Part shown: one piece after another, positions 23,302 through 64,000 of the stretch
How positions within the stretch are numbered: the first letter of the stretch is position 1
How the letters are laid out: each line of letters begins with the position of its first letter
NCBI GenBank assembly: GCA_001567275.1
Contig: LNBX01000040.1
Location: forward strand, 7,169-71,168
From: Bacteroidetes bacterium OLB10
GTDB taxonomy: Bacteria > Bacteroidota > Bacteroidia > AKYH767-A > OLB10
Length of the DNA: 64,000 nucleotides
Direction of reading: 5' to 3'
Translations under genes and position numbers: made by a program
Notes under the pieces: model-generated
Seen by the model: only the letters and a program-made list of their open reading frames with translations
The model's database searches: none
Told to the model about the DNA's origin: nothing

Positions 23302-23355
23302 GCACAAAAAAAAATCAGTCTTTAACCTTTTTTAACAGAAAACTCAGTTTTTGAT

Positions 23356-24366: not shown

Positions 24367-24458
24367 GCTGTAGTAAATAATATTTTTTTTGCAAATGTAT
24401 AAACAACTGAGCAAGCTGATAGAAGGAAAACTTATACTTTTGAAAAAATCATTTTTCA

Positions 24459-25868: not shown

Positions 25869-25902
25869 GCATTCACCTGAAAGTGTAATGCGGGTTGAAT
25901 TT

Positions 25903-26526: not shown

Positions 26527-26544
26527 CAGTGATACGGCAACTGT

Positions 26545-28668: not shown

Positions 28669-28684
28669 CTTTGCGCTGAAAAAT

Positions 28685-28912: not shown

Positions 28913-29019
28913 AACTGTAATCTAAAAAATAGTGATGCGAAAATAGGCATCCTTCTTCAATTTCAGGTATAAAACAAATCATCAGATGGTAAGTTTTAGT
29001 TATCATTGCTCCCGGTTTA

Positions 29020-29868: not shown

Positions 29869-29926
29869 AATCCACAACGGTAGTCTGAAAACCTCCGTTC
29901 ACATTCAAAAAAATGATGTTGGATTT

Positions 29927-30877: not shown

Positions 30878-30898
30878 CGATGCAAATATTTCATAAAG

Positions 30899-32032: not shown

Positions 32033-32035
32033 ATT

Positions 32036-34420: not shown

Positions 34421-34561
34421 AACACAGGAAATCCGGATTTCAGGCAGCAATAGTATTATCTTTTCCGCAACAATTTTTTGAGTAATATTTTTCTGTCGTA
34501 TGACATAGGTCATTTATCTGTTAAGCTAAAAATCTAAGATTTGTCGCCTTCTTTGGATAAA

Positions 34562-35935
34562 ATGTTTTTTCGTCAGATTTATATACCGGGCTTATCGCAG
34601 TTCAGCTACTTTCTGGAGTCAGAAGGTGAAGCTATCGTCATTGATCCCATTCGTGAACCGTATATGTATCTTGATCTGGCAAAAGAGCGTAATGCAAAAA
34701 TAAAGTATGTGTTGGAGACACATATTCACGCTGATTTTGTTTCAGGCCATCAGGAAATTGCAGAACGTTCAGGCGCCACTATTGTTTATGGGCCCAATGC
34801 ACGGACTGCATACCCAATTTATATGGCAAGAAATAATGAAGCAATTGCCTTTGGAAGTTTTTATTTAAAGGTATTGCATACACCCGGACATAGTATTGAA
34901 TCAACCTGTTATGTGCTGTATGATGAAAACCATAAACCTACAGCCATTTTCACAGGCGACACGCTGTTTGCCGGTGATGTAGGTCGTCCTGATTTGATGA
35001 GTGGAAACAAAAGTATTTATGAACTCACACAAATGCTTTTTGATTCATTGGGTATATTAAAATCACTTCCGGACGATTTAGTGGTTTATCCCGGACATGG
35101 AGCAGGCTCTGACTGTGGCAAAAACATCAGCGATGAAAAATTCACAACCATAGGCGAGCAGAAACAAAAAAATTATGCCATGCGGGCAACTGATATTGAC
35201 AGTTTCAGAAAAGCAGTTTCCTCTGATCTGACAATGCCTCCCGAATATTTTTTTAAAAACATGAGCATAAACATAATGGGTTATCGTCCATTGGAAGATG
35301 TGCTGAAAAAAAATATCAATCCGTTAAGCCCTGAAGAATTTAATTCGGAAATAAACAGAGCAATATTATTAGATACACGCGATTCGGAAGATTTTGCCGG
35401 AGCACATATCAGTGGTGCTATCAATATCGGATTAAACGGATTTTTTGCTCCATGGGTAGGAAAACTGATAGATATGGATCATCCTGTAATTGTGGTGGCT
35501 GATGCTGAAATGGATAAAGAGTCTATTACGCGACTGGCACGTATAGGTCTGGAAAATGTAAGAGGTTATCTGGAAGGTGGTATGACTGCATGGATGAATT
35601 CAAACTTCCCGACAGAACAAATTGAAATTATTGATTCCGATAAATTTTTATCTGTTATTTCTGATAATTCGCACATAGTGGTTGACTGCAGAAAGAAAAG
35701 AGAGTTTGTTAAAGTACATCTGAAGAACAATCTAAATATTCCATTGGAAGATTTTCAGAATCGCATAAATGAATTTGACAAGGACAAAAATTATATTCTG
35801 GTATGTAAAACAGGATACCTCAGCATGATTGCTTCTTCAATACTTCGCAAAAACGGAGTTCGTCAGGTTCAGGTACTTAAGGGTGGAATTGAAGGGTTGA
35901 GAAATGTTAAAGATGTATTTACGATGGAAGTCTAA
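34562..35935 (+). CDS. MBL-fold hydrolase fused to two rhodanese domains (persulfide dioxygenase-sulfurtransferase, CstB-like)
   Basis: HxHxDH motif HIHADFVSGH. Two rhodanese modules, the second with active-site CKTG. Confidence 0.65.
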   Translation: MFFRQIYIPGLSQFSYFLESEGEAIVIDPIREPYMYLDLAKERNAKIKYVLETHIHADFVSGHQEIAERSGATIVYGPNARTAYPIYMARNNEAIAFGSFYLKVLHTPGHSIESTCYVLYDENHKPTAIFTGDTLFAGDVGRPDLMSGNKSIYELTQMLFDSLGILKSLPDDLVVYPGHGAGSDCGKNISDEKFTTIGEQKQKNYAMRATDIDSFRKAVSSDLTMPPEYFFKNMSINIMGYRPLEDVLKKNINPLSPEEFNSEINRAILLDTRDSEDFAGAHISGAINIGLNGFFAPWVGKLIDMDHPVIVVADAEMDKESITRLARIGLENVRGYLEGGMTAWMNSNFPTEQIEIIDSDKFLSVISDNSHIVVDCRKKREFVKVHLKNNLNIPLEDFQNRINEFDKDKNYILVCKTGYLSMIASSILRKNGVRQVQVLKGGIEGLRNVKDVFTMEV

Positions 35936-36106
35936 GAAAAAATTAATGGATGATTAATAAATATGAATAAAACAATTACTGATAAATATCCTGTTGCCTG
36001 CTGCGGTAAATCATTTCTGCTCCGAAGTAATGAACCTACTTTTATACCGCAGAAAAAACTTTTTTCATATTTATAAAATGTAATTTGATTTAATGTTAGG
36101 ATGCAA

Positions 36107-36139
36107 GGCCGGTTAGCGAAAGCTGCCGGTTTTGCTTTT
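36107..36139 (+). terminator. Rho-independent terminator (ccggttagc-gaaa-gctgccgg + ttttgctttt)
   Basis: GC stem with GAAA tetraloop followed by a T-rich tract. Seen directly. Confidence 0.5.
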
Positions 36140-36409
36140 AAATAGTTTGGATAGGTGTATCTCCTGCTATAGCTGTCCATAAAATGATAATAATCATACC
36201 TTAAACTAATGCTGTTCATAAATTGGAGCAGCCACTTGTTGTTTTTTTGTATTTCAATTAAAGAGTGAAAATGAAACATCAGTTAACCATTCATCCCGAA
36301 GATAGCATTGAAGTTTTTCAAAAAAAATTCAATCATATATATCCATATCTTAAAGTTGAGTTTTTCAAAAAAGTCGCATCGCAAGGGGCAAGGAAGTCAT
36401 AAGAAAGAT

Positions 36410-36694
36410 ATGTATGCAGGTTCAGATTTATTCAAAGTACTTGCAAAAATGAATGAGAAGAAAACTTTTTTCTGGAATGACGATATGTCTATTGATGCAT
36501 TTGAACAGGGTTTTCGTACAAAGTTCGGACTGAATGTGCAGGTGTTTCGTAAATCAGGCAATGTATGGCTTGTAACTTCTGCTACTGATAACTGGACACT
36601 GATGCAGCAAAACGAAGAAGGCCAAAGCTTAGAAATGCATTTGAAAGCTCAGTCAGAAAACAAAGAAGAATTTGACAGAACCGAACAGGAATAA
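36410..36694 (+). CDS. Hypothetical small protein; possibly the C-terminal part of a frameshifted 36271..36694 gene
   Basis: ORF with ATG at 36410 (95 aa). An upstream ATG ORF at 36271..36402 in another frame ends in an A-rich tract. No recognised domain. Confidence 0.35.
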   Translation: MYAGSDLFKVLAKMNEKKTFFWNDDMSIDAFEQGFRTKFGLNVQVFRKSGNVWLVTSATDNWTLMQQNEEGQSLEMHLKAQSENKEEFDRTEQE

Positions 36695-42744: not shown

Positions 42745-43776
42745 GTGAACCGTAATATCAGCGACCTTTCAAACCTGATGAGTAAACTCACAGTGCGTAA
42801 GGCAGCCAATTTTTCGAAAGTGATCAGCAGCTATTATCTGTCGCGACTGACAGGTAAGGCACAGCATAATGGTATGCCAGTAAGTATTTCGGTTGAGCCT
42901 ACTACCTCCTGTAACCTGCGCTGCCCTGAGTGTCCGAGCGGGCTGAGAGCTTTCAGCCGCCCAACAGGAATGCTGCAACCCGAATTTTATAAACGACTGA
43001 TTGATGAACTTGCTCCTGATTTATTGTATCTGATACTTTATTTTCAGGGCGAGCCTTATCTGAACACCAATCTCTTTGACATGATTCGTTATGCACATGA
43101 GCATAAAATTTATACGGCAACATCTACCAATGCTCATTACCTGAGTGACGACAATGCCCGCAAAACTGTAGAAGCAGGACTCGACAGACTGATTATTTCT
43201 ATTGACGGCACTACGCAGGATGTGTACTCGCAATATCGCAAAGGTGGCTCACTTGAAAAAGTATTGCAGGGAGCTGAAACAATGGTGAAATGGAAAAAAC
43301 AACTTCAGTCAAAAACACCGCATCTCATTTTTCAGTTTCTGGTAGTGAAACCCAATGAACATCAGGTGGAGGATGTAAAAAAACTTGCAGCCAAGATTGG
43401 AGTGAACGAAGTGGCGTTTAAGACAGCTCAGCTTTATGATTATAAAAACGGTAATCCGCTGATGCCTGACAATTCCAGGTACTCACGTTATAAGAAGAAC
43501 AAAGACGGCACTTACAGCATAAAAAATCCATTGGAAAATCATTGCTGGAAAATGTGGCATTCATCCGTTATAACATGGGACGGAAGTATGGTGCCCTGTT
43601 GTTTCGACAAAGATGCAAGGCATAAGTTAGGCGATTTGCAGCACGATAGTTTCCGCAAGTTATGGCATGGCAAAACATATAATCGTTTCAGGCAGGCTGT
43701 TCTTACTTCGCGCAGCAGTATAGATATTTGTGCCAACTGCACCGAAGGTGGCCGCGTGTGGACAAAAGGCAGATAG
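42745..43776 (+). CDS. Radical SAM enzyme with C-terminal SPASM/twitch-like Cys-rich domain; substrate unknown
   Basis: CxxxCxxC cluster SCNLRCPEC. Gly-rich SAM region …ISIDG…. C-terminal …W.DG.MVPCCFD…ICANCTEGG. Confidence 0.8.
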   Translation: MNRNISDLSNLMSKLTVRKAANFSKVISSYYLSRLTGKAQHNGMPVSISVEPTTSCNLRCPECPSGLRAFSRPTGMLQPEFYKRLIDELAPDLLYLILYFQGEPYLNTNLFDMIRYAHEHKIYTATSTNAHYLSDDNARKTVEAGLDRLIISIDGTTQDVYSQYRKGGSLEKVLQGAETMVKWKKQLQSKTPHLIFQFLVVKPNEHQVEDVKKLAAKIGVNEVAFKTAQLYDYKNGNPLMPDNSRYSRYKKNKDGTYSIKNPLENHCWKMWHSSVITWDGSMVPCCFDKDARHKLGDLQHDSFRKLWHGKTYNRFRQAVLTSRSSIDICANCTEGGRVWTKGR

Positions 43777-43866
43777 ACTTTGCAAGTTGTCTATTAAGAA
43801 GTTTACTTCTTAGGTTTAATATGTAAAAAATTTTTCGCACAAGCGTGGCCATATAGTGTTATCGCT

Positions 43867-43915
43867 CGCGCTCACCCCCTGCCCCTGAAGGGGTGACTGC
43901 GCGCTTTGCTTTTTG
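43867..43915 (+). terminator. GC-rich extended hairpin + T-run; likely terminator of the radical SAM gene. Contains copy 1 of a 24-nt repeat.
   Basis: cgcgcTcacccc-ctgcccctgaa-ggggtgACTgcgcg followed by ctttgcttttt. Seen directly. Confidence 0.5.
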
Positions 43916-44163
43916 ATATTCGACTCCTATGAAGTTGGTGAAATGGTTTTGTTGTGTATGGTATTAATATGTAATCTCTACGGGATTTGGAATAATATTA
44001 TTGACTTAGGGCAAGAGGTCAGTTTTTACAGGGTTGTTTCTATTAATTCTTTTTTATGTTCTTTTGTCTTAACACAATCCCGCAGTTCAGCGGGACCAAA
44101 AAGTCAAGGCTGTATAAAAACATCCTAAAAATTCAAACCGATTCTGCTGCGCAATCGAATGTC

Positions 44164-44193
44164 GCAACGTTTCGTAATGCTACGAAACGTTGC
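44164..44193. other. Perfect 13-bp inverted repeat gcaacgtttcgta-atgc-tacgaaacgttgc (protein-binding site or RNA stem-loop candidate)
   Basis: Seen directly. Not flanked by a U-run on either strand. Confidence 0.35.
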
Positions 44194-44329
44194 TCGGGAT
44201 TGCTTACACATGCTCCCGCTACGAATCGCTTTGTATTTTCCAGGCGGATGTTTTTATAAGGCCGATTATTGATTTTCGTATCTAAAAGTTTATATCAAAA
44301 TATTGAGTTAATATTTTTTTGCCTTTGCG

Positions 44330-44353
44330 CACCCCTGCCCCTGAAGGGGTGAC
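44330..44353 (+). repeat. Copy 2 of the 24-nt GC-rich hairpin repeat cacccctgcccctgaaggggtgac
   Basis: Direct-orientation duplicate of 43874-43898 with a one-base difference in a C-run. Contains the cccc-tgaa-gggg mini-hairpin. Confidence 0.45.
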
Positions 44354-44557
44354 AACACACATCGTATTTGAAGCGCGTCTGCGCCCTTTAGGGCTATGGG
44401 TGAGCGGTGCAAAGTAGTGTTCTTTTTGTTGTGTTGTAAATTTTTTCAGTGTCATTGTCTTGTCCTGAGCGGTTTTAACAGCACATTTCTGCACCTGCTT
44501 CAAAATTTATTTATCTTATTTTTAAATCGAAAAAAATTCTATTTTTGCGCCCTCGTT

Positions 44558-44628
44558 TGTCCGATGGTGTAATGGTAACACTGCAGATTTTGGTTCTGCC
44601 TTTCCAGGTTCGAATCCTGGTCGGACAA
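44558..44628 (+). tRNA. tRNA-Gln (anticodon UUG)
   Basis: Manual cloverleaf fold. Acceptor tgtccga/tcggaca with U1:A72. D-arm gtgt/acac. Anticodon stem gcaga/tctgc with loop ttTTGgt. T-arm ccagg-ttcgaat-cctgg. No encoded CCA. Confidence 0.8.
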
Positions 44629-44681
44629 CAAAGAATGGGCTGTTTCAACTTTTGAGCAGCCTTTTTTGTTTACTTCGCTGT

Positions 44682-46037
44682 ATGAAAACCACCGCCATAA
44701 CGCGTATTTTCATTGTGGAGGACGATGACTGGTACCGCGAGTTTTTGCAATATATCCTCTCATTGAACCCCGACCACGAGGTGTCAGCTTTTGCTTCGGG
44801 CAGAGAGATGCTGGAAAATATGCACCGCCAGCCGCATATCATCACGGTTGACTATCACCTTCCCGACATAAACGGCAGCGAGTTGCTTACCAGAATCAAG
44901 GAGCAGCAACCCGATTCAGATTGTATTGTCATTTCAGAACAACACAGCATTGATACCGTTGTGGAACTGCTCAAAAACGGTGCTTATGATTATTTTGTAA
45001 AATCAAAGGATATCAGAGACAAGTTGCTCAATACAATTGAAAAAATAAAAGAGCAGCAACAACTCAAAACAAAAATCTGGGAGCTGGAGCGTGAAGTGGA
45101 ACAGAAATATGATTTTCAGAAACGCCTCATTGGTGCACATCCATCATTCCAGAAAATATTTCCATTGCTGCAAAAAGCCATTTCGTCCAATATTACTGTG
45201 ATGATAAGTGGCGAAACCGGAACTGGTAAAGAAGAAATTGCCAAAGCCATTCACTATCATTCGAGGCAGAAGAAAGGAGCTTTTGTTGCTGTGAACATGT
45301 CGGCCATACCCAAAGAATTAGCCGAAAGCGAATTGTTTGGCCATGAGAAAGGTGCCTTTACCGGTGCTATACAGTCACGCACAGGAAAGTTTGAAGAAGC
45401 CAATGACGGCACATTGTTTTTAGACGAAATTGCCGATATGGACATTGCCCTTCAGGCAAAGCTGCTTCGTGTGTTGCAGGAACGCGAAGTGGTGAGGGTG
45501 GGTTCCAACAAACCCATTAAAATAAACTGCAGAATTATTGCTGCCACTCACCGCAATCTGGCTGCCGAAGTAAAACAAAACCGTTTTCGCGAAGACCTTT
45601 TCTTCCGTTTGTATGGTTTGCAGATACATTTGCCACCGTTGCGCGAGAGAGGTACTGACTGTATTCTGCTATCGCAGTATTTTATCCGACAGTTTTGTAA
45701 AGAGAATCAGCTGCCGACAAAAAAACTTTCGTCAGAGGCACAGAGTAAACTGATGGCTTATGCTTTTCCGGGAAATGTTCGCGAACTGAAATCGGTAATA
45801 GAACTGGCTGTAGTGATGGCAGATACAGAAACCATTCAGGCAGATAATCTCATTTTTTCTGAAAGTAATTTTGAAACGGAACTCCTGTCGCAGGAACTCA
45901 CACTCGAATTGTATGAGAAGAAAATTATTCTGCATGTGCTGGGCTTGTGCAACGGCAACGTGCAGCAGGCTGCCGACAGACTGAACATTGGCAAAAGCAC
46001 CATCTATCGTTTGCTGAACAGGGAAAAAGAAGGGTAA
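44682..46037 (+). CDS. Sigma-54-dependent response regulator (NtrC family: REC + AAA+ sigma54 activator + Fis-type HTH)
   Basis: REC domain. Walker A GETGTGKE. GAFTGA motif. Arg-finger region. C-terminal HTH …GNVQQAADRLNIGKSTIYRLL. Confidence 0.9.
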   Translation: MKTTAITRIFIVEDDDWYREFLQYILSLNPDHEVSAFASGREMLENMHRQPHIITVDYHLPDINGSELLTRIKEQQPDSDCIVISEQHSIDTVVELLKNGAYDYFVKSKDIRDKLLNTIEKIKEQQQLKTKIWELEREVEQKYDFQKRLIGAHPSFQKIFPLLQKAISSNITVMISGETGTGKEEIAKAIHYHSRQKKGAFVAVNMSAIPKELAESELFGHEKGAFTGAIQSRTGKFEEANDGTLFLDEIADMDIALQAKLLRVLQEREVVRVGSNKPIKINCRIIAATHRNLAAEVKQNRFREDLFFRLYGLQIHLPPLRERGTDCILLSQYFIRQFCKENQLPTKKLSSEAQSKLMAYAFPGNVRELKSVIELAVVMADTETIQADNLIFSESNFETELLSQELTLELYEKKIILHVLGLCNGNVQQAADRLNIGKSTIYRLLNREKEG

Positions 46038-49856: not shown

Positions 49857-50717
49857 ATGGGAAAAATAGAAAGAAGAAGTAAACTCACTTTCAGGGAATT
49901 TATGAATGAATACATTATTCCCAACAAGCCTGTCATACTAACCGATCAGTCAAAAGACTGGAAGGCATACAATGTATTCACACCTGAATTTTTTAAGAAA
50001 AACTTTCCGGACAAGACAGCAACCATTAAGGGCAAAGAATATAAACTCGGAGAGTATGTGGATATGATGCTGGCTTCCACGCCTGAAAATCCTGCGCCTT
50101 ATCCTTTTAAAGTAGATATAGACAGAAAATTCAGCGAACTGCTTGAATATGTGCAGCCTGATTTTGAAGTGATGCGCAAGAACAGACTGAAAAGCCCCAT
50201 GTTCCGTAATGGACTTATTCCACAGGCGGCAACGCTCGAAGTATTTTTTGGCGGTGCTGCAGGATGGTTTCCTTATCTGCATTATGATTTATATGGTTTA
50301 TATGCGATTGTTACACAGGTTTACGGACATAAAGAGTTCATCCTCTACAAACCCGAAGAAGGAAAATATATGTATCCCGATCCTGAACATCCCTGGAAAT
50401 CAACTATTGAAGAATATTACAATCCCAATTACGAAAAGTATCCTTTGTTTAAGAACGCTAACCCGATGAGTGATGTAGTAGCTCCCGGTGAAACAGTGTT
50501 TGTGCCCAAAGGTTGGTGGCATACAGCGCGTTCCATGGAGCCTACAATTTCCATTGCTAAAGATTTGCTGGTACATCAAAACTGGGACCTGTTCAGTAAA
50601 GATGTGGTGTTTTACAAGAGAAAACAAAGTCCTGTTAAAGCGAATATTATGGTTGGATATCTCAAAGCACTTGATATGGGAATGGGAATACATGAAAAGT
50701 TTATCAGTAAATATTAA
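49857..50717 (+). CDS. JmjC/cupin-like domain protein (putative 2OG-Fe(II) oxygenase fold)
   Basis: …WFPYLHYD… and …VFVPKGWWHTARS… resemble the His-x-Asp/…His facial triad of Cupin_8/JmjC proteins. Confidence 0.5.
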   Translation: MGKIERRSKLTFREFMNEYIIPNKPVILTDQSKDWKAYNVFTPEFFKKNFPDKTATIKGKEYKLGEYVDMMLASTPENPAPYPFKVDIDRKFSELLEYVQPDFEVMRKNRLKSPMFRNGLIPQAATLEVFFGGAAGWFPYLHYDLYGLYAIVTQVYGHKEFILYKPEEGKYMYPDPEHPWKSTIEEYYNPNYEKYPLFKNANPMSDVVAPGETVFVPKGWWHTARSMEPTISIAKDLLVHQNWDLFSKDVVFYKRKQSPVKANIMVGYLKALDMGMGIHEKFISKY

Positions 50718-51078
50718 ACTTACTGAAATGATTTGTTAAATATTGATTGTGTCATTCACATTGGAACAGAAGATGAATGAATGTTGATAAGTGATATATG
50801 ATACGTATTTTAGTGTGGTAGTGTAATATTCAGAATAACTTGTGGGAGGCAAATGTTCCGTAAATTTAAACACAACAATTTCTGAATTATCACTCGCACA
50901 AAACAATATTAATTATTTGTTGTTCTATTAACTGGATCGTGAACGAAGAGAAAATAAAATAAAAAAAAATTCAAATCTTCATTGTTTGTTAAGAAATATG
51001 TTGTACTTTAGCATCGCAAAATTGAAGTAACACACACAAAGATATTTTTTTCATAGGGTTAGTTTTAGGTTACGAATA

Positions 51079-51109
51079 GGGGGCTCAACGGAGCTCCCTT
51101 TCGTTTTTT
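51079..51109 (+). terminator. Orphan Rho-independent terminator (gggggctc-aacg-gagctccc + tttcgtttttt) ~360 bp downstream of the JmjC gene
   Basis: 8-bp GC-rich stem (one G·U) followed by a T-run. Immediately upstream of the next plus-strand gene. Confidence 0.5.
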
Positions 51110-51148
51110 AGTCACTTTGTGTTTGGTCTAATAAATTATTTTTGTACT

Positions 51149-51595
51149 ATGAAAAAACGAATAGCATTTCTTTCATTGAGTCTGATGCTGATTGCTGCAT
51201 TGAAATTGAATGCGCAGCAGGCTCCTACTACCTCAGCAGAATATCTTTATGGGTCGGTTGGATATAAACTGCAGCTTAATAATAAACTGCCCATGAAAGA
51301 AGGTTATACCCTTCGCGATTTTTCGCCTGTGGTAGAAGATACTCGTCAGGTAGAATTCAAAGGTTTATATCGCAATGGAGAAAAAATTCCCTGTGCAGTG
51401 ATTATGATTTACACAAGGCTTCGCATGGCACCTCAGTATTATTGTATTCCATCTGCCGATGCTGATGCAGAATTGTGGAAGAAGTTTAATGCAAGCTTGC
51501 TTGACGACTCTGAAAATCAGCAACCGCAATTGCAGTTTTTTGCATACTGCATAGCACATCTTTCTGCTCAACTTGCAATGAACAATGGGAAATAA
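51149..51595 (+). CDS. Hypothetical secreted protein
   Basis: Signal peptide MKKRIAFLSLSLMLIAALKLNAQQ. No recognised domain. Confidence 0.45.
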   Translation: MKKRIAFLSLSLMLIAALKLNAQQAPTTSAEYLYGSVGYKLQLNNKLPMKEGYTLRDFSPVVEDTRQVEFKGLYRNGEKIPCAVIMIYTRLRMAPQYYCIPSADADAELWKKFNASLLDDSENQQPQLQFFAYCIAHLSAQLAMNNGK

Positions 51596-51596
51596 A

Positions 51597-52343
51597 ATGT
51601 CGGCAATAGCTGTTATCCCTGCACGATACAACAGCACACGCTTTCCGGGAAAGCCATTGACCGATATTGGCGGACAAAGTATGTTGCAGCGCGTATATCA
51701 TCAAACTCAAAAGGCAAAAAATATTCAGCGCATAATTATTGCTACTGATGACAACAGGATTCAGGAACATGCATCATCTTTTGGCGCAGAAGTAATGATG
51801 ACATCAGATCGACATCCTTCAGGCACTGACCGCATTGCCGAAGTAATATCCAAACTGAATGAGTTGTATGATATTGTAGTAAATGTGCAGGGTGATGAAC
51901 CGTTTATCAATCCATCGCAGATTGATGCACTGGTTGATTTGTTCAGCAATGTGAACGTTGACATCGCTACGATGGTGAAACCACTCAGTGGAATTCAGGA
52001 ATATGAAAACCCAAATGTGGTGAAAGCAGTGATGGCCGATAATGGGAAAGTTCTTTATTTCAGTCGCAGCAATATTCCTCATTTCAGAAGGGGATATAAT
52101 GATCAGACATTCTCGTCCGTTACAGGATACAAGCACCTTGGTATGTATGCATACCGCAGCAGTGTTCTCAGTAAACTTGCCAAACTTGCACCATCGTCAC
52201 TGGAACAGGCAGAACAACTGGAGCAACTTCGCTGGCTTCAGAATGGTTTTAGTATCAGTGCCTGCATCACCCATGAAGAAACCATTGCCATTGACACACC
52301 GGATGATTTACAACGGGCAGTCATGTTTTTGAAACAGAGATAG
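51597..52343 (+). CDS. kdsB: 3-deoxy-manno-octulosonate cytidylyltransferase (CMP-KDO synthetase)
   Basis: MSAIAVIPARYNSTRFPGKPL N-terminus. ~248 aa. The alternative ATG at 51585 overlaps the upstream stop. Confidence 0.9.
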   Translation: MSAIAVIPARYNSTRFPGKPLTDIGGQSMLQRVYHQTQKAKNIQRIIIATDDNRIQEHASSFGAEVMMTSDRHPSGTDRIAEVISKLNELYDIVVNVQGDEPFINPSQIDALVDLFSNVNVDIATMVKPLSGIQEYENPNVVKAVMADNGKVLYFSRSNIPHFRRGYNDQTFSSVTGYKHLGMYAYRSSVLSKLAKLAPSSLEQAEQLEQLRWLQNGFSISACITHEETIAIDTPDDLQRAVMFLKQR

Positions 52344-52417
52344 AATAATCATTTACTTAAAGCAAATGTTTTTTTACATTCAAAGTTTTACTTTTACACC
52401 TCTTAATATTTATTGTT

Positions 52418-54463
52418 ATGCTAAAAAATTTATGTGCAGCAGTATTGCTGCTGATTGCTACAGGCGCACACAGTCAAAATAAACTTACTCCCGAAACACT
52501 CTGGAAACTGGGTCGCGTTGGCGAAGCAGCATTATCACCTGATGGGAAAACAGTAGTTTATACTGTGCGTACTTTTGATTTACATTCTAACAAAGGCAAT
52601 ACGGATATTTATAAAATTCCTGTTACGGGAGGGCAACCTACTTTACTTGCAGGAGAATCAGCTGATGAAACTGCACCACAATGGAGTGCTGACGGAAAGA
52701 AAATTTATTTTCTGAGTAACAAAGGAGGAGTGAATGGACTTTACGTAATGGATGCTTCAGGTTCAGGTATGAAACGACTGACCAATTACGGTGATGATAT
52801 TTCTTGTTTTGGAATATCGCCTGCCGGAAACAGAATCTGGCTTACTCGTGATGTTAAAATTGATAAGAACGCTCACGATTTATACCCTGATTTACCTCTG
52901 GCAACAGGGCGTATTTACGATGACCTCATGTATCGCCACTGGACACAATGGGAAGATGGATTGTACTCACATGTTTTTGTTGGAAGTTTTGTAAATGATG
53001 AAGTAGGTAACCTAACCGACATACAAGCCGGTGAACATTTTGATACACCTATGCAACCACATGGAGGTAGCGAACAAATAGCATGGAGTGCTGATGGAAA
53101 AAAACTGGCTTACACCTGCAAAAAACTTTCAGGAAAGGAATATGCGGTAAGTACCAATTCGGACATTTACCTGTATGATTTTGAAACAGGAAAAACTGAA
53201 AACATATCAGCAAGTAATTTGGGTTATGATATAAATCCTGCATTTTCATCTGATGGCAACAGTATGATGTGGCTCAGTATGAAAACACCGGGCTACGAAG
53301 CTGACCGTAACAGAATTCTTATTTATCATCTGGATTCAAAAAAAATTATTGAAGCCACTGCCGGATTTGATTATAGTGTGGAAAGTGCAAAGTGGGCGGC
53401 TGATGGCAAACGTATTTATTTTATTTCAGGAATTAATGCTACTGAACAGTTGTGGGTGTATGACGGCCGTTTACGCAGTTATCCGCCTGTAATGCAACTC
53501 ACACATGATGTGGCTGACTATACAGATTTTTCATTCGCTGCAGATCCTAAAATTACCTACGCTATCACTACAAGAATGTCTATTTCATCACCTTCGGAAT
53601 TATATAAAACAGATTTAAAAACCGGTGTGTCAACTCCGCTTACTGCAACCAACGAAGCAGTACTTAAAAACATCAAAATGGGAAAAGTAGAAAAACGAAT
53701 GGTGAAAGCGACTGATGGAAAAGAAATTCTTACCTGGGTAATTTATCCTCCCGATTTTGATGCATCCAAAAAATATCCTGCACTGCTTTACTGTCAGGGA
53801 GGCCCACAGAGCACGGTATCACAATTTTTCAGCTACCGTTGGAATTTTCAACTGATGGCAGCTAATGGTTATATCATTGTTGCACCCAACAGAAGAGGAT
53901 TACCTTCTTTCGGAACAGAATGGAACCATGAGATTTCAGGTGACTGGGGAGGACAGTGCATGAGAGATTATCTTTCAGCTATTGACTCAATGAGCAACCT
54001 TCCTTTTGTTAACAAAGATAAACTTGGAGCAGTGGGCGCCAGCTTTGGTGGCTACAGTGTTTACTGGCTTGCAGGGCATCATCAAAAACGCTTTAAAACA
54101 TTTATAGCCCATTGTGGTGTATTTAATCTCGAGAGTATGTATGGTACTACCGAAGAGTTGTGGTTTACGGATTATGATTTGGGAGGACCATACTGGCAGA
54201 CTCCAAAACCAAAATCTTACACACAGTTCTCGCCAAATGATTATGTAAAAAACTGGGATACTCCCATACTCATCATTCAGAATGAAAAAGATTTCAGAGT
54301 GCCACTGGGTCAGGGAATGGAAGCATTCACTGCAGCGCGCTATCAGAATATTCCTGCCAAATTTCTTACTTATCCTGATGAGGGGCATTGGGTTACTAAA
54401 CCACAAAACAGTGTATTGTGGCAACGAATATTTTTTGACTGGCTCGATCGTTATCTGAAGTAA
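52418..54463 (+). CDS. S9-family serine peptidase (prolyl oligopeptidase/DPP-like) with N-terminal beta-propeller
   Basis: Signal peptide. TolB-like propeller repeats. Nucleophile elbow GASFGGY. C-terminal Asp/His (…DEGHW…). Confidence 0.85.
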   Translation: MLKNLCAAVLLLIATGAHSQNKLTPETLWKLGRVGEAALSPDGKTVVYTVRTFDLHSNKGNTDIYKIPVTGGQPTLLAGESADETAPQWSADGKKIYFLSNKGGVNGLYVMDASGSGMKRLTNYGDDISCFGISPAGNRIWLTRDVKIDKNAHDLYPDLPLATGRIYDDLMYRHWTQWEDGLYSHVFVGSFVNDEVGNLTDIQAGEHFDTPMQPHGGSEQIAWSADGKKLAYTCKKLSGKEYAVSTNSDIYLYDFETGKTENISASNLGYDINPAFSSDGNSMMWLSMKTPGYEADRNRILIYHLDSKKIIEATAGFDYSVESAKWAADGKRIYFISGINATEQLWVYDGRLRSYPPVMQLTHDVADYTDFSFAADPKITYAITTRMSISSPSELYKTDLKTGVSTPLTATNEAVLKNIKMGKVEKRMVKATDGKEILTWVIYPPDFDASKKYPALLYCQGGPQSTVSQFFSYRWNFQLMAANGYIIVAPNRRGLPSFGTEWNHEISGDWGGQCMRDYLSAIDSMSNLPFVNKDKLGAVGASFGGYSVYWLAGHHQKRFKTFIAHCGVFNLESMYGTTEELWFTDYDLGGPYWQTPKPKSYTQFSPNDYVKNWDTPILIIQNEKDFRVPLGQGMEAFTAARYQNIPAKFLTYPDEGHWVTKPQNSVLWQRIFFDWLDRYLK

Positions 54464-54519
54464 TTACGTTTCTGTTAAAAAGAGATTCTTCAGAAAAAAT
54501 TATTGCAGTGTAGATTTTC

Positions 54520-55137
54520 TCAGCTGAGTGAATACATGATAAAAAAGTATTCACATACAAATCCTGCAAGAAATCCTGCATACAACTGCCAGGGAGTGTG
54601 TGCTCCATGCAGCAGCCGGGCAGATGCTACTAAACCTGACAGAATGAAACATAGTATCATTGGTAATATGAACTCATTGCCTAACAAAACAGAAAGCACA
54701 TAAAGTGCTCCTGTCATTCCACCTAAACCAATGAGGTGAATACTGATTTTCCAGAAAAAGTTAATGATAAAGGCAAGTGCAATACAACAGGCTGCAGCCA
54801 GAATAAGAATTTTGATGACGGAAGAAACAGGAAGTTTCAAGAGAAAATAATAGCAGGCTACATAATAAATCAAGGTAAAGAAATAAGGAACATAACGCGA
54901 TTTACGGTCTTCCATAAGCAGACTTTGCAAACCTCCTCTGCGCAGCAGCAATACCGATGAAAGCAGTGGCATCAGAAAGGTAAGAACAAAAATGGTGATG
55001 AGAATAATGCGCTGTAAGGAAGGTGAAAGCGTATAAGCTAAATAAGTATTACTTCTGAACAGAAGCAACATAAGATAAGTGGGAATCAGCAACGGATGCG
55101 ACAACCAGGTCAGTAAATTTAAAAACCGGTTGAACAT
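54520..55137 (-). CDS. Polytopic membrane protein, possibly PAP2-like phosphatase
   Basis: Six predicted TM helices. Weak PAP2-like motifs (…SIHLIGLGG…, …ARLLHGAHTPWQ…). Confidence 0.35.
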   Translation of the reverse strand: MFNRFLNLLTWLSHPLLIPTYLMLLLFRSNTYLAYTLSPSLQRIILITIFVLTFLMPLLSSVLLLRRGGLQSLLMEDRKSRYVPYFFTLIYYVACYYFLLKLPVSSVIKILILAAACCIALAFIINFFWKISIHLIGLGGMTGALYVLSVLLGNEFILPMILCFILSGLVASARLLHGAHTPWQLYAGFLAGFVCEYFFIMYSLS

Positions 55138-55140
55138 TTT

Positions 55141-56671
55141 CTATAATTCTTTTCGTAAACGAGCCACAGGAATGTTCAGTTGCTCACGGTATTTTGCAAT
55201 AGTTCTTCGTGCTACATTATAACCTTTATCATTCAGAATTTTTGCCAGCTGATCATCAGGTAGTGGTTTGCGTTTGTCTTCGCCTTCAATAGCATCAGAA
55301 AGTATTTTCTTTACTTCACGCGTACTCACTTCCTCACCTGAATCGGTTGCCATTCCTTCAGAGAAAAATGTTTTAAGCAAAAAATGTTCCGAATGGTGTT
55401 TGCACATACTTGCTGTTGGCAACACGCGAAACGGTAGAAATATCCAGCCCCACAATATCTGCAATATCTTTCAGGATCATCGGCTTAAGAAGTTTCTCAT
55501 CCCCTTCCTGAAAATAATCAATCTGATAATTCATAATAGCCTGCATGGTATGCAGCAATGTTGCCTGACGTTGCTTGATGGCATCAATAAACCATTTGGC
55601 CGAATCAATTTTTTGTTTCAGATATAAAATAGCTTCTTTTTGTGAGCGGTCATGTTTTTTGCTGTTTGCATAACCTTCCATCATCTCATTATACTCTCGG
55701 TTTATTCTCAGTTCCGGAGCATTTCTCGAATTGAGTGTAAGTTCCAGATGTCCATCATGGTTGGTAATGACAAAATCAGGAACTATATGTTGTACAGTTT
55801 TTGCATCTGCAGAAATATCACCACCCGGACGTGGATTCAGTTTCAGAATTTCCTGCATTGCTTCTTTCAGATATTCATCAGGAAGATTCATCAACCGCGC
55901 AATTTTCTCATAATGTTTTTTGGAGAATTCGTCCATATAATTTTTGATAATTTCTATGGCACGCTGAATGGCTTTGTTGTCTTTGTTTTTTCGTTGCAGT
56001 TGCAGCAGCAAACATTCCTGCAAATTACGAGCGCCTGTTCCCGGAGGGTCGAAGGTTTGAATCACCTGCAATACTTGTAATAACTCGTCAGATGTGGTAT
56101 GAATGTTTTGCGTAAATGCAAGATCGTTGACAATGGAATTGAGATCACGTCTGAGATAGCCGTCTTCGTCAAGACTGCCGATGAGGTGATGTGCAATGAG
56201 CTTTTGTTTTTCGTCAAGGTTCATCATTCCCAATTGCACCAGCAAAGTTTCCTGAAAAGTTACAGAGGCTCCTAAAGGCATTTCTGTACGCTCATCGTCA
56301 GGCGAAGAGTTGTTGGCATTGCTCTTGTAATATGGTACATCTTCATCCGTAATATAATCATCTACATCAAAGTCATCAGTATTTCGGTCTTTAATTTCTT
56401 CTTCAGCACTGTTGTCAAATTCATCTTTTTTATTGTCGTTGTCGTCTGAGCCTTCTTCTACTCCGTCATCAAGTTGAGTCTCTTCTTCGTCCTGCAGTTT
56501 TTCATCGTCAACATCTTCAGGGGCGCCTTCTTCCAGTGCTTCATTTGTTTCAAGTTCTTCTTTGATACGTTGTTCAAGGGCAACAGTAGGCAGTTGCAGC
56601 AGTTTCATCAGCTGAATCTGCTGTGGAGAAAGCTTTTGTAGTAATTTCTGTGATAAACTCTGCTTTAACAT
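55141..56671 (-). pseudogene. rpoN: RNA polymerase sigma-54 factor RpoN, interrupted by a 1-nt frameshift in an A6/T6 run (55379-55384)
   Basis: ORF 55373..56671 has Gln/Leu-rich region I (…LSPQQIQLMKLLQLP…) and the core-binding and DNA-binding domains up to …KYVQTPFGTFFA*. ORF 55141..55464 in the adjacent frame continues …LLKTFFSEG… to the RpoN box ARRTIAKYREQLNIP. Removing one T from acaTTTTTTgct restores TPFGTFLLKTFFSEG. Confidence 0.8.
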
Positions 56672-56887
56672 AATGAATTATCGGTGCCAAAATTAAAATT
56701 TTATACGTGGTTTTGGCTGAAATGGTTCTCAAACAAGTAAAATTAAAAAATTAAAAGAAGAAATGAATAGTAAGTATGATTTTTTACTTGTGTATGAGTG
56801 AAAAAAATGTTATACATTTGTACATTCGTTAAGCCTTCTGTACAGAGGGCTTAATTGTTTGATTGAATTTTTAAAGTGATTAGTAAC

Positions 56888-58729
56888 ATGTCAGAAATTG
56901 AAAAGGATTCTGCATTGAGCGAGAACCAAACCGTAAACGAAGTAAGTACAGAAAAAGAACTTACTGAGCAACCCTTGCATGAGGAGCATCAGGAACATGT
57001 GGCGGAGCCGGCTGAAAATTTCAGCAATCTCTCAAAGGAAGAGATGGTTAAGTTAGTCGAATCTTTTGCCGTTGCAGATATTACAGAGGTGAAATCTAAA
57101 GTACCTGCACTCAAGGAAGCATTTGACGCACTTTTGGAAACAGAAAAAACTGCAGCACTGTCAGCACATCTGGAGCAAGGTGGAGCCAAAGAAGATTTCA
57201 AATTTGAATACAGCAAGGACGATGACCGGTTTCAGGAAGCTTTAAGAAAATTCAATAAAAGAAAAGCAGAATATACTGCCGAGCAGGAAAAACTGCGCGA
57301 GGATAATCTGAAAGTAAAACAGGATATTCTCACTGAAATGAAAAACCTTATTCAGAATGAGGATAACATGCAACGTGCTTTTGAGCAGTTTCATGAGTTG
57401 CAGGCACGTTGGCGAAGTACAGGACCGGTACCTCAGGGCAAATTGCAGGATTTGTGGCTGACTTATAAACTTTACACTGACAAATTTTATGAGTTACTCA
57501 AAATAAACCGTGAGTTACAGGAGCTGGATTATAAAAGAAATCTGGATGCTAAAATTACTATTTGCGAAAAAGCAGAAGAACTGGTGAATGAACCATCTTT
57601 AAATACTGCATTACAGACACTGCAGTTTTTGCAAAATAAATGGCGCGAAACCGGACGTGTAAGCCATGATAAAAGTTCTGAAATATGGGAGCGATTTAAA
57701 GCTGCAGGTGATAAAGTATATGAGCGAAGAAGAGAATATTACAATCAACTGAAACAACGTTATGCTGAAAATCTTGAAGCAAAAAACAGTTTGATTGGAA
57801 AGCTGGAAGAGCTGATGAAAGAAGCACCTGTAAAAGCCAATGATTGGGTTGAAAGAGGAAAAGCTATTGTAGAATTGCAAAATGAGTGGAAGAAGATTGG
57901 TTATGCAGATAAGAAATCCAATGATGAAGTATGGGAAAAATTCAGAGGTATTTGTGACAAATTTTTCTCGGGTAAGAATGAATTTTTTACCAATCTGAAG
58001 AGAGAACATGCCGATAATCTTCAGGCAAAAAATGAACTGTGTATGCAGGCTGAAGCATTGGCAGAAAGCAGCGACTGGAAAAAAACTACCGAAGAACTCA
58101 AGCGGCTGCAGCAGGAATGGAAAAAAACAGGATCGGCAGGAGAGCGTCATAACCAAAAAGTGTGGGAACGTTTTCGCAAAGCCTGTGACGCATTTTTTGC
58201 ACGCAAGAGCGAACATTATACTTCACTTGAATCAGAATATAAAGAAAATCTCGAAAGGAAAAATGCACTGATTGAAAAAGCAGAGCAGTTTGTAGCCGGA
58301 GATAATGGTGACGAAACAGTAGAACAACTTAAAGAGTTGCAACGTGAGTGGAGTGCAATAGGAATGGTTCCGTTAGAACACAAGGACACTATTTATGCAC
58401 GTTTCAAAGCAGCTATTGATAAGCATTTTCAGGCTTTGCGTCAGCAAAATAAGGAGCGTTTTACCTCTCACAGCAGACCTGCATACAGAAGTGGGAAGCC
58501 CGGTAATGAAAAGAACGACATCAAGCATCGCATGAATCAGTTGTCAAGCGAAATCAATACATGGGAAAACAATCTTGGTTTTTTTGCCAAGTCGAAAAAT
58601 GCTGATGGCGTAAGAAAAGAATTTGAAGAAAAAATAAACAGAGCAAAAGAAGAAATTCAGCGCCTGAAAAAACAACTGGATACGATTGCTTTGCCGGCAA
58701 AAGAAGAAAAACCGGAAGACAAGCAATAA
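56888..58729 (+). CDS. DUF349 repeat protein (about six copies of W-x-GxxxxxxxxxxWERF+xACDxFF units)
   Basis: Repeats visible directly: …WRSTGPVP…, WRETGRVS…WERFKAAGDKVY, WKKIGYAD…WEKFRGICDKFF, WKKTGSAG…WERFRKACDAFF, WSAIGMVP…YARFKAAIDKHF. Confidence 0.8.
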   Translation: MSEIEKDSALSENQTVNEVSTEKELTEQPLHEEHQEHVAEPAENFSNLSKEEMVKLVESFAVADITEVKSKVPALKEAFDALLETEKTAALSAHLEQGGAKEDFKFEYSKDDDRFQEALRKFNKRKAEYTAEQEKLREDNLKVKQDILTEMKNLIQNEDNMQRAFEQFHELQARWRSTGPVPQGKLQDLWLTYKLYTDKFYELLKINRELQELDYKRNLDAKITICEKAEELVNEPSLNTALQTLQFLQNKWRETGRVSHDKSSEIWERFKAAGDKVYERRREYYNQLKQRYAENLEAKNSLIGKLEELMKEAPVKANDWVERGKAIVELQNEWKKIGYADKKSNDEVWEKFRGICDKFFSGKNEFFTNLKREHADNLQAKNELCMQAEALAESSDWKKTTEELKRLQQEWKKTGSAGERHNQKVWERFRKACDAFFARKSEHYTSLESEYKENLERKNALIEKAEQFVAGDNGDETVEQLKELQREWSAIGMVPLEHKDTIYARFKAAIDKHFQALRQQNKERFTSHSRPAYRSGKPGNEKNDIKHRMNQLSSEINTWENNLGFFAKSKNADGVRKEFEEKINRAKEEIQRLKKQLDTIALPAKEEKPEDKQ

Positions 58730-60028
58730 TTAACCTTCGAATTCTATCTCAGTATTCAGTTTTTGAGCAAGCAGCTTAAGCAAGTCAGCTTTAAGTGCAT
58801 CATTATTGATTTTTTCAATAACGTCACCTGCAAAAGCATAATTCAGCAAAGCGAGTGCATCTTTTTTGCCAATACCTCTTGAACGGAAATAGAAAAGTGC
58901 TTCTTCGTCCAGTTGGCCTGTGGTAGCACCGTGCGAACATTTTACATCATCGGCATAAATCTCCAGCTGAGGTTTTGCATTCATGACAGCCACATCGCTT
59001 AACAAAACATTTTTGCTGCTCTGAAATGCATTGGTTTTTTGTGCATCCTGACGAACAAATATTTTACCGTTGAAAATACCATGAGCATTGTCGTCAAGAA
59101 TGTTTTTATACAACTGAAAACTTTCGCAATGCGGGCTTGCATGATCCACCAGAGTGTGATTGTCAACAGTCTGATTTTTTCCTCCTACAGTAAGACCGTT
59201 CAGGTGAGCAGTGCCACCGGTTTCAGTGAGTGCAATATTCAGATTATTTCTGACCATTTTGCCTCCGATGGTTACAGTGGAAATATCGAAAACAGAATCA
59301 CGTTTCTGTTGTGCATACACATAATTTATCTGAAGTGCTTTTTCATTTTCATCCTGTTTTACATCATACTCTACAAAAGCATTTTCACCCACAAAAAATT
59401 CAGTTACGGAATTGGTAAGCGAAGTGAAATTATTCAGCGAATGGTAGGTTGCTATCAGCTGAACTTTGGAATTTTTTTCGGCAACAACCAGATTGCGGGG
59501 GTGCGCAGCTACGGCTTCTTGTCTTGAATCGTTGAAGTGCAGCAGGTGAATAGTTTGTTTAACCTCTTGTCCTGCTTTGATATGTATGAGCAAACCTCCG
59601 TGATGGAATGCGGTGTTGAGTGCAATAAACGGCTCATCGGTTTTGGCAAGTTTTCCAAACCAGTGCGCAGCAAGTTCTGATTCTACTGATTCAATGCTGA
59701 AGGTGTTATCCCGCTGTTGAGAAGATAATTCAGGACAATAAACACCATTGATAAAAACCAATGTGATGGCATCGGCACCTGCAACTTTATATTTTTCAAT
59801 ATCAGACAAAGTTAATTTGGTGCAGGCCGGGGCCTGATGGTTAAATGGTGTATTTTTCAGAACTGACAAATCAAGATATTTCCACTCTTCGTCTTTCAAT
59901 GACGGAAATCCTGACTTGTTGAAGGTATCAATGGCAAGTTTTCTTTCGGGAGTAAGTTTTTCCGAAGCTATATTTTCAAACGATATTTGTTGTTCTGTTT
60001 CTGAAATGGTTTCTGTAAGCGTATTCAC
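58730..60028 (-). CDS. sufD: Fe-S cluster assembly protein SufD
   Basis: 432 aa. Beta-helix SufB/D family member immediately downstream of sufC. Confidence 0.85.
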   Translation of the reverse strand: MNTLTETISETEQQISFENIASEKLTPERKLAIDTFNKSGFPSLKDEEWKYLDLSVLKNTPFNHQAPACTKLTLSDIEKYKVAGADAITLVFINGVYCPELSSQQRDNTFSIESVESELAAHWFGKLAKTDEPFIALNTAFHHGGLLIHIKAGQEVKQTIHLLHFNDSRQEAVAAHPRNLVVAEKNSKVQLIATYHSLNNFTSLTNSVTEFFVGENAFVEYDVKQDENEKALQINYVYAQQKRDSVFDISTVTIGGKMVRNNLNIALTETGGTAHLNGLTVGGKNQTVDNHTLVDHASPHCESFQLYKNILDDNAHGIFNGKIFVRQDAQKTNAFQSSKNVLLSDVAVMNAKPQLEIYADDVKCSHGATTGQLDEEALFYFRSRGIGKKDALALLNYAFAGDVIEKINNDALKADLLKLLAQKLNTEIEFEG

Positions 60029-60045
60029 GTCAGCAATTGTTTTTT

Positions 60046-60798
60046 TTAGATTTCTACTTCTTCCTTTATCCAGTCGTAACCTTTTTCTTCAAGTTCAAGA
60101 GCAAGTTCCTTGGTTCCGCTTTTTACAATACGGCCTTTGTAAAGCACATGAACAAAATCAGGAACGATATAATCCAGCAATCGCTGATAGTGTGTAATGA
60201 CAATGAAAGAGCGTTTGCCGTCACGCAGTGCATTTACACCATCGGCCACAATACGCAATGCATCAATGTCAAGTCCTGAGTCTGTTTCGTCAAGCACACC
60301 AAGTTCGGGTTCGAGCATTGCCATCTGAAAAATTTCATTTCTTTTCTTTTCACCTCCGCTGAATCCTTCATTCACACTGCGCTGTGTCATGGTTTTATCT
60401 ACCTGCACCAACTGCATTTTTTCACGCATCAGTTTCAAAAACTCTTTGGAGTCGAGTGGAGCAAGTCCTTTCGATTTGCGTACTTCATTCACTGCTGTTT
60501 TCATAAAATTGGCATTGCTCACGCCCGGAATTTCTATCGGATACTGAAATGCCAGAAATATTCCTTTGCGTGCGCGATCTTCAGGAGCCATCTCCAGTAT
60601 ATTTTCTCCATTAAAAATTACTTCTCCTTCAGTTACGTTATACTCTTCGCGACCTGCAAGTACCGATGCCAGCGTACTTTTTCCTGAACCATTTGGTCCC
60701 ATGATGGCATGCACTTCTCCGGGGTTGATTTCAAGATTCAGACCTTTCAGAATTTCCTTATCTTCAATGTTGGCTTTAAGATTTTTAATTGATAACAT
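60046..60798 (-). CDS. sufC: Fe-S cluster assembly ATPase SufC
   Basis: Walker [14 protein letters not shown] signature. 250 aa. Confidence 0.95.
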
Positions 60799-60818
60799 TT
60801 CTTTTTTTTGATTTAAAA

Positions 60819-62264
60819 TTATCCGACACTTCCTTCTAAACTTACTGCAAGTAGTTTTTGTGCTTCTACTGCAAACTCCATTGGCAGCTGATTAAATACT
60901 TCGCGGCAATAGCCATTCACGATTAACCCAACAGCATCTTCAGTTGATATTCCTCTTTGGTTGCAATAAAATATCTGGTCTTCGCCCACTTTAGATGTAG
61001 TGGCTTCGTGCTCCACTTTTGCAGTAGGGTTCGAACATTCTATATAAGGGAATGTATGTGCACCGCATTTATCGCCAAGTAAAAGCGAATCACATTGCGA
61101 AAAATTTCTTGCGTTAAGAGCATTTTTTCCGATGCGTACCAAACCACGATAGCTGTTGTTGCTTTTGCCTCCGCTGATTCCTTTTGATACAATGGTGCTG
61201 CTGGTGTTTTTGCCGATGTGAATCATCTTGGTTCCTGTATCGGCCTGTTGCATATTGTTGGTTACTGCTACAGAGTAAAACTCACCAACAGAATGATCGC
61301 CTTTAAGAATTACACTTGGATATTTCCAGGTAATAGCACTTCCTGTTTCAACCTGTGTCCAGCTTATTTTGGCGCGTTCGCCTGCGCAAAGCCCTCTCTT
61401 GGTAACAAAGTTATATACTCCGCCTTTACCATTTTTATCTCCGGGATACCAGTTTTGTACGGTACTGTATTTTACCTGAGCATCTTTATGCGCATAAATC
61501 TCCACTACTGCAGCGTGTAGTTGATTTTCGTCACGCTGAGGTGCAGTACATCCTTCGAGGTAGCTTGCATAAGCACCTTCATCTGCAATAATCAGTGTAC
61601 GTTCAAACTGGCCGGTACCTGCTGAGTTGATGCGGAAGTAAGTACTCAATTCCATCGGACAACGAACACCTTTAGGTATATAACAAAAGGAGCCATCGCT
61701 GAAAACGGCACTGTTGAGTGCTGCATAATAATTATCAGTATAAGGCACTACACTGCCCATATATTTTTTTACAAGGTCGGGATGTTCGCGTACCGCTTCG
61801 CTGAAAGAGCAGAAAATAATTCCAAGTTTTGCTAATTCATCACGAAAAGTTGTTTTTACACTTACACTGTCAATTACAGCATCTACTGCCACTCCTGACA
61901 AACGTTTTTGCTCTTCGAGTGAAATACCCAACTTATCGAATGTGGCTTTCACTTCGGGGTCTAATTCATCCAGGCTGTTGAGTGTTTTTTTGGGTTTGGG
62001 AGCAGAGTAATAAATGATGTCCTGAAAATCAATTTCAGGATAACTGACGTGTGCCCAAGAGGGCTCTTCCATTTTTTTCCACTGATTGAATGCTTTGAGC
62101 CTAAAGTCGAGCATCCACTGAGGTTCATTTTTCTTGGCTGAAATAAACCGGATGATATCTTCATTCAAACCTTTAGGCGCAGTATCAGCTTCAATGTTGC
62201 TTACAAAGCCCCATTTATAATCGCTGCCGGTTACTTCGTCTATTATTTTTAAATCCTCACTCAC
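60819..62264 (-). CDS. sufB: Fe-S cluster assembly protein SufB
   Basis: 481 aa. Conserved SufB core (…[13 protein letters not shown]…). Confidence 0.95.
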
Positions 62265-62392
62265 TGTTCTTTATTTTATTTGGTTATTTAGAATATGTCT
62301 AAATTTAATATGTAGTCAAAAAAAATTTATCCCTTCCGGGTTTTATTTAGATGCTGGAAATATGTTTTTAATGTTTTCAATCAAATTTGATT

Positions 62393-62719
62393 TTATACTG
62401 CAAAACTCTCACCGCAGCCACAGGTACGCGATGCATTGGGGTTTCTGAAATGAAAACCTTTCCCATTCAGTCCATCAGTATAATCGAGTTCTGTGCCAAT
62501 GAGATAAAGAAATGATTTTTTATCACAAACTATTTTAATCCCTTTATCTTCAAAAACTTTGTCATCAGGTTTAATTACTGTATCAAATTCAAGCAGATAG
62601 GTCAACCCTGAACAACCTCCGCCATCCACCCCAACACGGATAAAAGCATCAGAGCCTTTGTTTTCGGCTTGCATCAAACTCAGTGCTTTGGTTTTAGCAG
62701 TTTCGGTAACGGTAATCAT
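62393..62719 (-). CDS. sufA: A-type Fe-S carrier (SufA/IscA/ErpA/HesB family)
   Basis: Cys-x(n)-Cys-Gly-Cys-Gly-x-S-F C-terminus (…TCGCGESFAV). First gene of the suf operon. Confidence 0.85.
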   Translation of the reverse strand: MITVTETAKTKALSLMQAENKGSDAFIRVGVDGGGCSGLTYLLEFDTVIKPDDKVFEDKGIKIVCDKKSFLYLIGTELDYTDGLNGKGFHFRNPNASRTCGCGESFAV

Positions 62720-63339
62720 AATCTCTTGTATGAATATTTGAAAATGAGGCTACAAAAATAGCGTATATATACAGACATTCAACAGAAATCACCATTAAAA
62801 GTTTGTAAAAAGATATTCTTTAAGTTGTTTTAGCCGGGTTTAGAAATTTCTGTATCAAAATGAATAAAAGCTGCCACAATACAGGAATATTGAGATTGAA
62901 AATTTAGCAAAATCCTAAAAAGATAATCAGAATATCCGGAATTTATTTGATATAAAATGTTGTAACAAAAATAAAGTACCACAAACTCAATATCTTAATT
63001 CAAAAAAACGGTTCTATGACAAAAAACAGTTGCAAAGCCATTGTTTAATTTAGAGTTTATTCTACATTTGAACCCGCTAAACAGAACATAATCCACGCTT
63101 TTTATTATTAGTGGACTTTTAAAATCAAATTAAAAACAAGGAGGTGTATTGAGAGAATATATCCTCCGGAATTCATTAACAAAACATGCTGATGACAGGA
63201 GGGGATATGTGCGTCTTATTGGTTTTTGCCACGAGACAACATGAGGATGGGCTTGTAATGCTAAAGAACAGTTCGTTTTAAATAAGCCGCTTTTCAAAGT
63301 AGAAAACAATTAAATTAAGTATTACTAAAAATCAAACGT

Positions 63340-64000
63340 ATGACAAACAAAAACAAGTCAAGAAAAGGATACTACTTAAAGTATCTGATGAGTTGTTTCG
63401 TAGCAATAATGCTATGGACAACGGGCGCACGGGCGCAAACGGTAACTATAGGAAATCCTGGTTCTTCTACCAGCACCTATTATATTCCGATTAATAACTT
63501 TTATAGTTATACTTATTCACAACAAATTATTCTGTCGTCAGAGATTGGTATGGATGGGAATATTACCAAAATCAAGTTCTACTGGCTTGGAGTAGGGGAC
63601 CTCAATAACGGACAGAACTGGACTGTTTATCTGGGTTATACTACTGCAAGTTCTTTTGCAAATTCAACTTCTTGGGTACCATTAGGCAGTTTAACGCAAG
63701 TGTTTTCTGGAACAGTTGCACAACCTTCAGGTGCAGGATATACTTGTGAAGTAACACTTACTACTCCATTTCTTTATGAGCAGGCAAACGGAAATTTGGT
63801 AATTGCCGTTGATGAAAATCAATCAGGTTATTCGAGTTCTACCAATGTGTTTAAAACTACTGCGGGTGCAAACCGTAGTATCTATTACAGGAGTGATGGA
63901 ACCAATCCTAATCCTGCAAGCCCACCCACAGGAACTCTTTATGGATATTATAACAATATGCAACTGGAGATGGTGTCAAATACGCCTTGTGCCGGTACTC
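63340..64000 (+). CDS. Partial (N-terminal) large secreted protein of unknown function; the gene runs off the window end
   Basis: ATG at ~63340. Signal peptide …YLMSCFVAIMLWTTGARAQ. Open frame to position 64000. A long AT-rich 5' leader precedes it. Confidence 0.45.
   Translation, partial: MTNKNKSRKGYYLKYLMSCFVAIMLWTTGARAQTVTIGNPGSSTSTYYIPINNFYSYTYSQQIILSSEIGMDGNITKIKFYWLGVGDLNNGQNWTVYLGYTTASSFANSTSWVPLGSLTQVFSGTVAQPSGAGYTCEVTLTTPFLYEQANGNLVIAVDENQSGYSSSTNVFKTTAGANRSIYYRSDGTNPNPASPPTGTLYGYYNNMQLEMVSNTPCAGT

Follow-up and report, generated by a model that had tools for sequence, protein, structure and literature searches.

A split sigma-54 gene, rpoN, in a Bacteroidota contig most probably reflects a one-base homopolymer error of the assembly

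The rpoN gene, encoding sigma-54, was located on the minus strand of the window, the whole stretch of 64,000 nucleotides that was analysed. The gene was composed of two open reading frames (ORFs) in adjacent frames, an upstream piece (55373..56671, 432 aa) and a downstream piece (55141..55464, 107 aa). The 432-aa piece contained the Sigma54_AID and Sigma54_CBD domains and positions 3–82 (of 160) of the Sigma54_DBD profile, and the 107-aa piece covered positions 78–159 of the same profile. The frames met at a T6 run with the context GGAACATTTTTTGCTTAA, and the codons across the junction were GGA ACA TTT TTT GCT TAA. The initial annotation had attributed the split to a single surplus base in this T6/A6 homopolymer, and both the ORF frames and the domain profiles on either side bore this out. 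When one T was removed from the run, a 509-aa sigma-54 was obtained, in which the junction read ...YVQTPFGTFLLKTFFSEGM..., exactly the conserved junction that the annotation had written for a one-T deletion. The features of the window are listed in Table 1.

Table 1. Genes and homopolymer sites discussed in the text, in window coordinates.
Feature	Position	Strand	Remarks
rpoN (sigma-54)	55141..56671	-	ORF pair in adjacent frames; Pfam AID/CBD/DBD
T6 homopolymer holding the extra base	55379..55384	-	A6 on + strand; T5 in other assemblies of the species
NtrC-type sigma-54-dependent activator, intact	44652..46037	+	REC, Sigma54_activat, AAA lid, HTH_8
NarL/LuxR-type response regulator (REC + GerE), split	6054..6681	+	Repaired, 208 aa
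Hypothetical protein gene, 140 aa, frame-broken after '...VEFFKK'	36271..36694	+	Intact in L060–L064
Extra base, A6 (A5 elsewhere)	55379-55384	+ strand reading	Breaks rpoN
Extra A, A7 (A6 in L048, L049)	6420-6426	+	Breaks response regulator
Extra A, A6 (A5 in L050, L052–L054, L060, L061, L063, L064)	36367-36372	+	Breaks 140-aa gene
T8 (T7 elsewhere)	24383-24390	+	Intergenic
T6 (T5 elsewhere)	30827-30832	+	Intergenic
T4 (T5 elsewhere), sole private deletion	36130-36133	+	Intergenic
A6 (A5 elsewhere)	56745-56750	+	Intergenic, upstream of rpoN
A7 (A6 elsewhere)	56801-56807	+	Intergenic, upstream of rpoN

The repaired RpoN carried the region I domain Sigma54_AID (PF00309) at residues 3–48 (E about 1e-11) and the core RNA-polymerase-binding domain Sigma54_CBD (PF04963) at residues 135–327 (E about 1e-59). 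The Sigma54_DBD domain (PF04552) was unbroken over profile positions 3–159 (E=1e-52) and included the helix-turn-helix and the RpoN box 'ARRTIAKYR'. In the window version this domain was cut at profile positions 78–82, and it became contiguous only after the one-base removal. The gene is thus a member of the sigma-54 (RpoN) family, with the AID and CBD present as written and a contiguous DBD present only after repair. Once the extra base was gone, the gene was the same as other Bacteroidota RpoN in the AID, CBD, DBD, RpoN box, and 509-aa length, with no notable difference. The neighbourhood of rpoN, composed of the suf operon, a DUF349 gene, rpoN, a gene for a 205-aa membrane protein, and an S9 peptidase gene, was kept in all relatives.

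The NtrC-type activator gene was located 9 kb from rpoN, and a 451-aa orthologue was called in the comparator contigs L060–L064. It had previously been reported as intact, in agreement with the REC, Sigma54_activat, and HTH_8 domains found here. The intact activator indicates that the sigma-54 system is maintained. A scan of the window for sigma-54 promoters (TGGCAC-N5-TTGC, at most one mismatch) gave 1 match, against 5.5 expected by chance. In the Rfam scan a tRNA was the only match, and no RNA element was tied to the rpoN break.

A protein search with the repaired RpoN returned thousands of full-length Bacteroidota sigma-54 matches. The best match was P0001 (509 aa, 99% identity); the next ones, also intact, had 94%, 91%, and 85% identity. 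P0001 is encoded on contig L001 (ERZ27284552), where rpoN was intact and its product differed from the repaired window protein at 3 residues. When the L001 contig was compared with the window, the nucleotide identity was 99.7% over 6.7 kb, with 17 substitutions and three one-base gaps; at all three gaps the window was longer by one T in a minus-strand T-run.

Further contigs of the same species were retrieved by exact-protein look-ups with neighbouring window genes. The 509-aa RpoN of five independent same-species assemblies, L055 (GCA_041393295.1), L056 (GCA_019187265.1), L057 (GCA_963169445.1), L058 (ERZ27282990), and L059 (ERZ27282915), was the same as the repaired window protein at every residue. 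The ORF pair was therefore not a chance juxtaposition, and the possibility raised earlier that the two ORFs were unrelated was rejected by this complete identity. When the NCBI contig L056 was compared with positions 50043..64000 of the window (13,958 bp), 0 substitutions and 3 one-base gaps were found, and a comparison of L053 (Logan assembly, ERR2683212) with positions 15902..36527 gave 1 substitution and 4 one-base gaps. The comparison with close relatives that had been proposed for this gene gave the in-frame run length in 11 of the 11 relatives that were not error-ridden themselves, including the contig with zero substitutions. The 432-aa truncated product had no identical entry when it was looked up by exact sequence in public assemblies, and thus the truncation is called in no other public assembly. 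The nearest species-representative genomes were uncultured Bacteroidota metagenome-assembled genomes (MAGs; e.g. WAS_Bin_1 and SZAS-1) with 93–94% protein identity, and the names of the MAG records suggest a link of the organism to activated sludge.

The rpoN tail after the break (78 codons) showed 100% protein identity with the intact relatives and no decay, and its 5 nucleotide differences from L001 were all synonymous in the restored frame. The gene held one lesion in total, with neither the further lesions nor the relaxed selection of a pseudogene.

The whole window was then compared with the same-species contigs, the first 16 kb only with the noisy contig L048 and the short contig L049. 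Eight one-base differences were private to the window, and all were located in A/T homopolymers (7 insertions and 1 deletion; Table 1). Five of the eight were intergenic. None of them was found in another assembly (11 or more samples), and the comparators agreed mutually at each of the eight sites despite substitution divergence of up to about 1.3%. Substitutions against the closest contigs amounted to 1 in 34.6 kb. The private branch of the window held 7 indels and 1 substitution, compared with 5 indel events and 597 substitutions in the other assemblies (Fisher p = 1e-12). The indel frequency rose with run length from 0% to 12.5% (0/276 5-mers, 4/126 6-mers, 2/38 7-mers, and 1/8 8-mers). The private indels were somewhat clumped; a stretch of 1.43 kb around rpoN held three of them. 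The run at window position 23306 was unlike the private sites: L052 and L054 had A8 here, and the window had A9 together with L050 and L053. Each length state was common to distinct strains, and so this run looks like a natural intergenic homopolymer polymorphism.

Three otherwise perfectly conserved genes were broken in the 64 kb, each by one additional A in an A6/A7 run. Besides rpoN, these were the response regulator and the 140-aa hypothetical protein gene. The response regulator was divided into a REC piece (6054..6473) and a GerE piece (6448..6681), and its relatives P0121 and P0122 were intact at 208 aa. The gene sits downstream of a 7TMR-DISM/HisKA_3 sensor kinase gene (4677..6029). 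Directly after it, a stand-alone LuxR/GerE helix-turn-helix ORF of 64–73 aa (6784..7005) was also called in L048 and L049, and is for this reason probably a real small regulator gene. The 140-aa protein had no Pfam match. A homopolymer-fusion scan of the window gave many hits, among them rpoN and the response regulator; the others were ordinary adjacent genes (e.g. sufB/C/D) or antisense ORFs. The 140-aa gene was missed, its portion before the break being too short. The overlap of ORFs 14919..15401 and 15277..16617 raised the suspicion of another frameshift. This was rejected, since the pair consists of a UPF0102/YraN gene, called with an over-extended start, and CreD as a gene of its own. The ORF 35932..36279, for which the look-up was empty, was judged a spurious antisense or intergenic frame, its true neighbour being the 140-aa gene on the plus strand.

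The extra base in rpoN is very likely a homopolymer-length error in the consensus of this assembly, and the rpoN of the organism itself would be intact and encode 509 aa. This reading was drawn from sequence comparisons, in which five same-species assemblies held the intact gene and the differences from the window were almost only one-base run lengths. The extra T/A in the run would be a miscall of run length in the consensus, and the same type of error very likely occurred at the seven other A/T runs, two of which would also have split genes artificially. The private run-length differences presumably arose in sequencing, consensus calling, or polishing. Several features of an artefact were found together: the differences were private to one assembly, recurred in homopolymers, depended on run length, and exceeded the substitutions. 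Residual homopolymer indel errors of genome and MAG assemblies reportedly lead to artificial frameshifts and split gene calls (e.g. Watson & Warr 2019, Nat Biotechnol). Like the known homopolymer errors of assemblies, those of the window were single-base, confined to runs, dependent on run length, present in one assembly only, and more numerous than substitutions. The known errors also split conserved genes into ORFs in adjacent frames, as in the window.

Similar errors were found in related assemblies. The rpoN of CP064983.1 (L011; 3001..4525) contained three frame-breaking homopolymer deletions, and the rpoN of a related species (L047; 916..2441) was one base short in the adjacent T-run, in both cases at sites other than that of the window. 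A same-species assembly, GCA_041393335.1 (L048/L051, contig JAWKKJ010000009.1), showed 70 gap openings in 20.6 kb. In it, a P-type ATPase gene, FeoB, an OEP gene, an RND pump gene, an AMP-binding gene, and a response regulator gene were split. The response regulator was the same one that is broken in the window, interrupted there at another A-run (window 6168), where the window was correct. Such breaks, reciprocal and non-shared among near-identical genomes, point to assembly noise. The errors of the window were mostly insertions (7 of 8), in contrast to the deletions in the error-prone relative L011; this insertion bias is without effect on the conclusion of an artefact. Residual homopolymer indels are a documented error of long-read assemblies (Sereika et al. 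2022, PMC9262707). Searching the literature for the accessions of related assemblies gave no match.

The initial annotation had left two alternatives for the break: a homopolymer error, or a real inactivation of sigma-54 that might be phase-variable or recent. The evidence as a whole decided between them, in favour of the error and strongly against the loss. A genuine and very recent loss of rpoN function in the strain or a sub-population, caused by replication slippage and possibly selected, is very improbable. Adaptive inactivation often strikes regulators, and two of the three broken genes encode transcription regulators; the undecayed rpoN tail would also fit a very recent event. However, the lineage would have needed 8 homopolymer indels and at most one substitution since its split from L053 and L056. 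Even for the spectrum of a mismatch-repair-deficient strain, at least 7 indels among 8 events would be improbable (p about 4e-4, with an indel share of ~25% assumed as a ballpark figure). Selection on regulators cannot account for the whole set, since most of the sites were intergenic, and the absence of every one of the indels from all other assemblies also stands against a genuine loss. A related proposal, a mutator or hyper-slippage sub-lineage that sheds regulators and has lost rpoN, the NarL-type regulator, and the small gene by slippage of one additional A in A-runs, is very improbable in turn.

Phase variation at the run, by which sigma-54 would be turned on and off, or a bypass of the break by programmed +1 frameshifting or transcriptional slippage to give full-length RpoN, is hardly credible, since neither the tract length nor a shift site was conserved: the run was T5 in L001–L007 and in the same-species L055–L059, and it was interrupted by synonymous changes in more distant relatives (TTTCTG in L008, L009, and L011). 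The site is a homopolymer in which, as read from the sequence, UUU UUU would permit re-pairing of tRNA-Phe after a +1 slip, and the change in L047 is a different one-base change in an adjacent T-run. The tract is only 5–6 bases long, however, and typical A/T contingency tracts are longer. The window shares with phase-variable loci a frameshift of the ON/OFF type in a mononucleotide run. Unlike those loci, its run was short, showed no length polymorphism among natural strains, and was unconserved across species, and it had intergenic counterparts; identical extra-base events at intergenic runs lie beyond any logic of frameshifting. The orthologues from clean assemblies were all in a single frame, with no conserved out-of-frame arrangement, and no strain polymorphism in length was found at a long conserved tract, as would mark a contingency locus.

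With a homopolymer error as the preferred reading, the rpoN locus holds no new biology, and its value is for quality control only. Annotators of this assembly would wrongly score sigma-54, the response regulator, and the small gene as pseudogenes, and a false loss of the sigma-54 regulon could be deduced from the split rpoN. With 8 errors in 64 kb, a homopolymer error would occur about once every 8 kb; roughly 5% of the genes in the window (3 of some 55) would be falsely split, and the rest of the assembly may have a similar rate. Calls of gene loss from this assembly are therefore unsafe without polishing or frameshift-aware gene calling.

A strain-variable slot adjoined the tRNA-Gln gene (44558..44629), at 43776..44652 in the window and at about 5100..7800 in L060–L064. 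A 314-aa Por_Secre_tail gene was located in the slot of L060, L061, L063, and L064 and was absent from the window. The slot also contained a unit of roughly 125 bp, which was present as a single copy in the window (44330..44455) and as 3–4 copies in L062 and L064.
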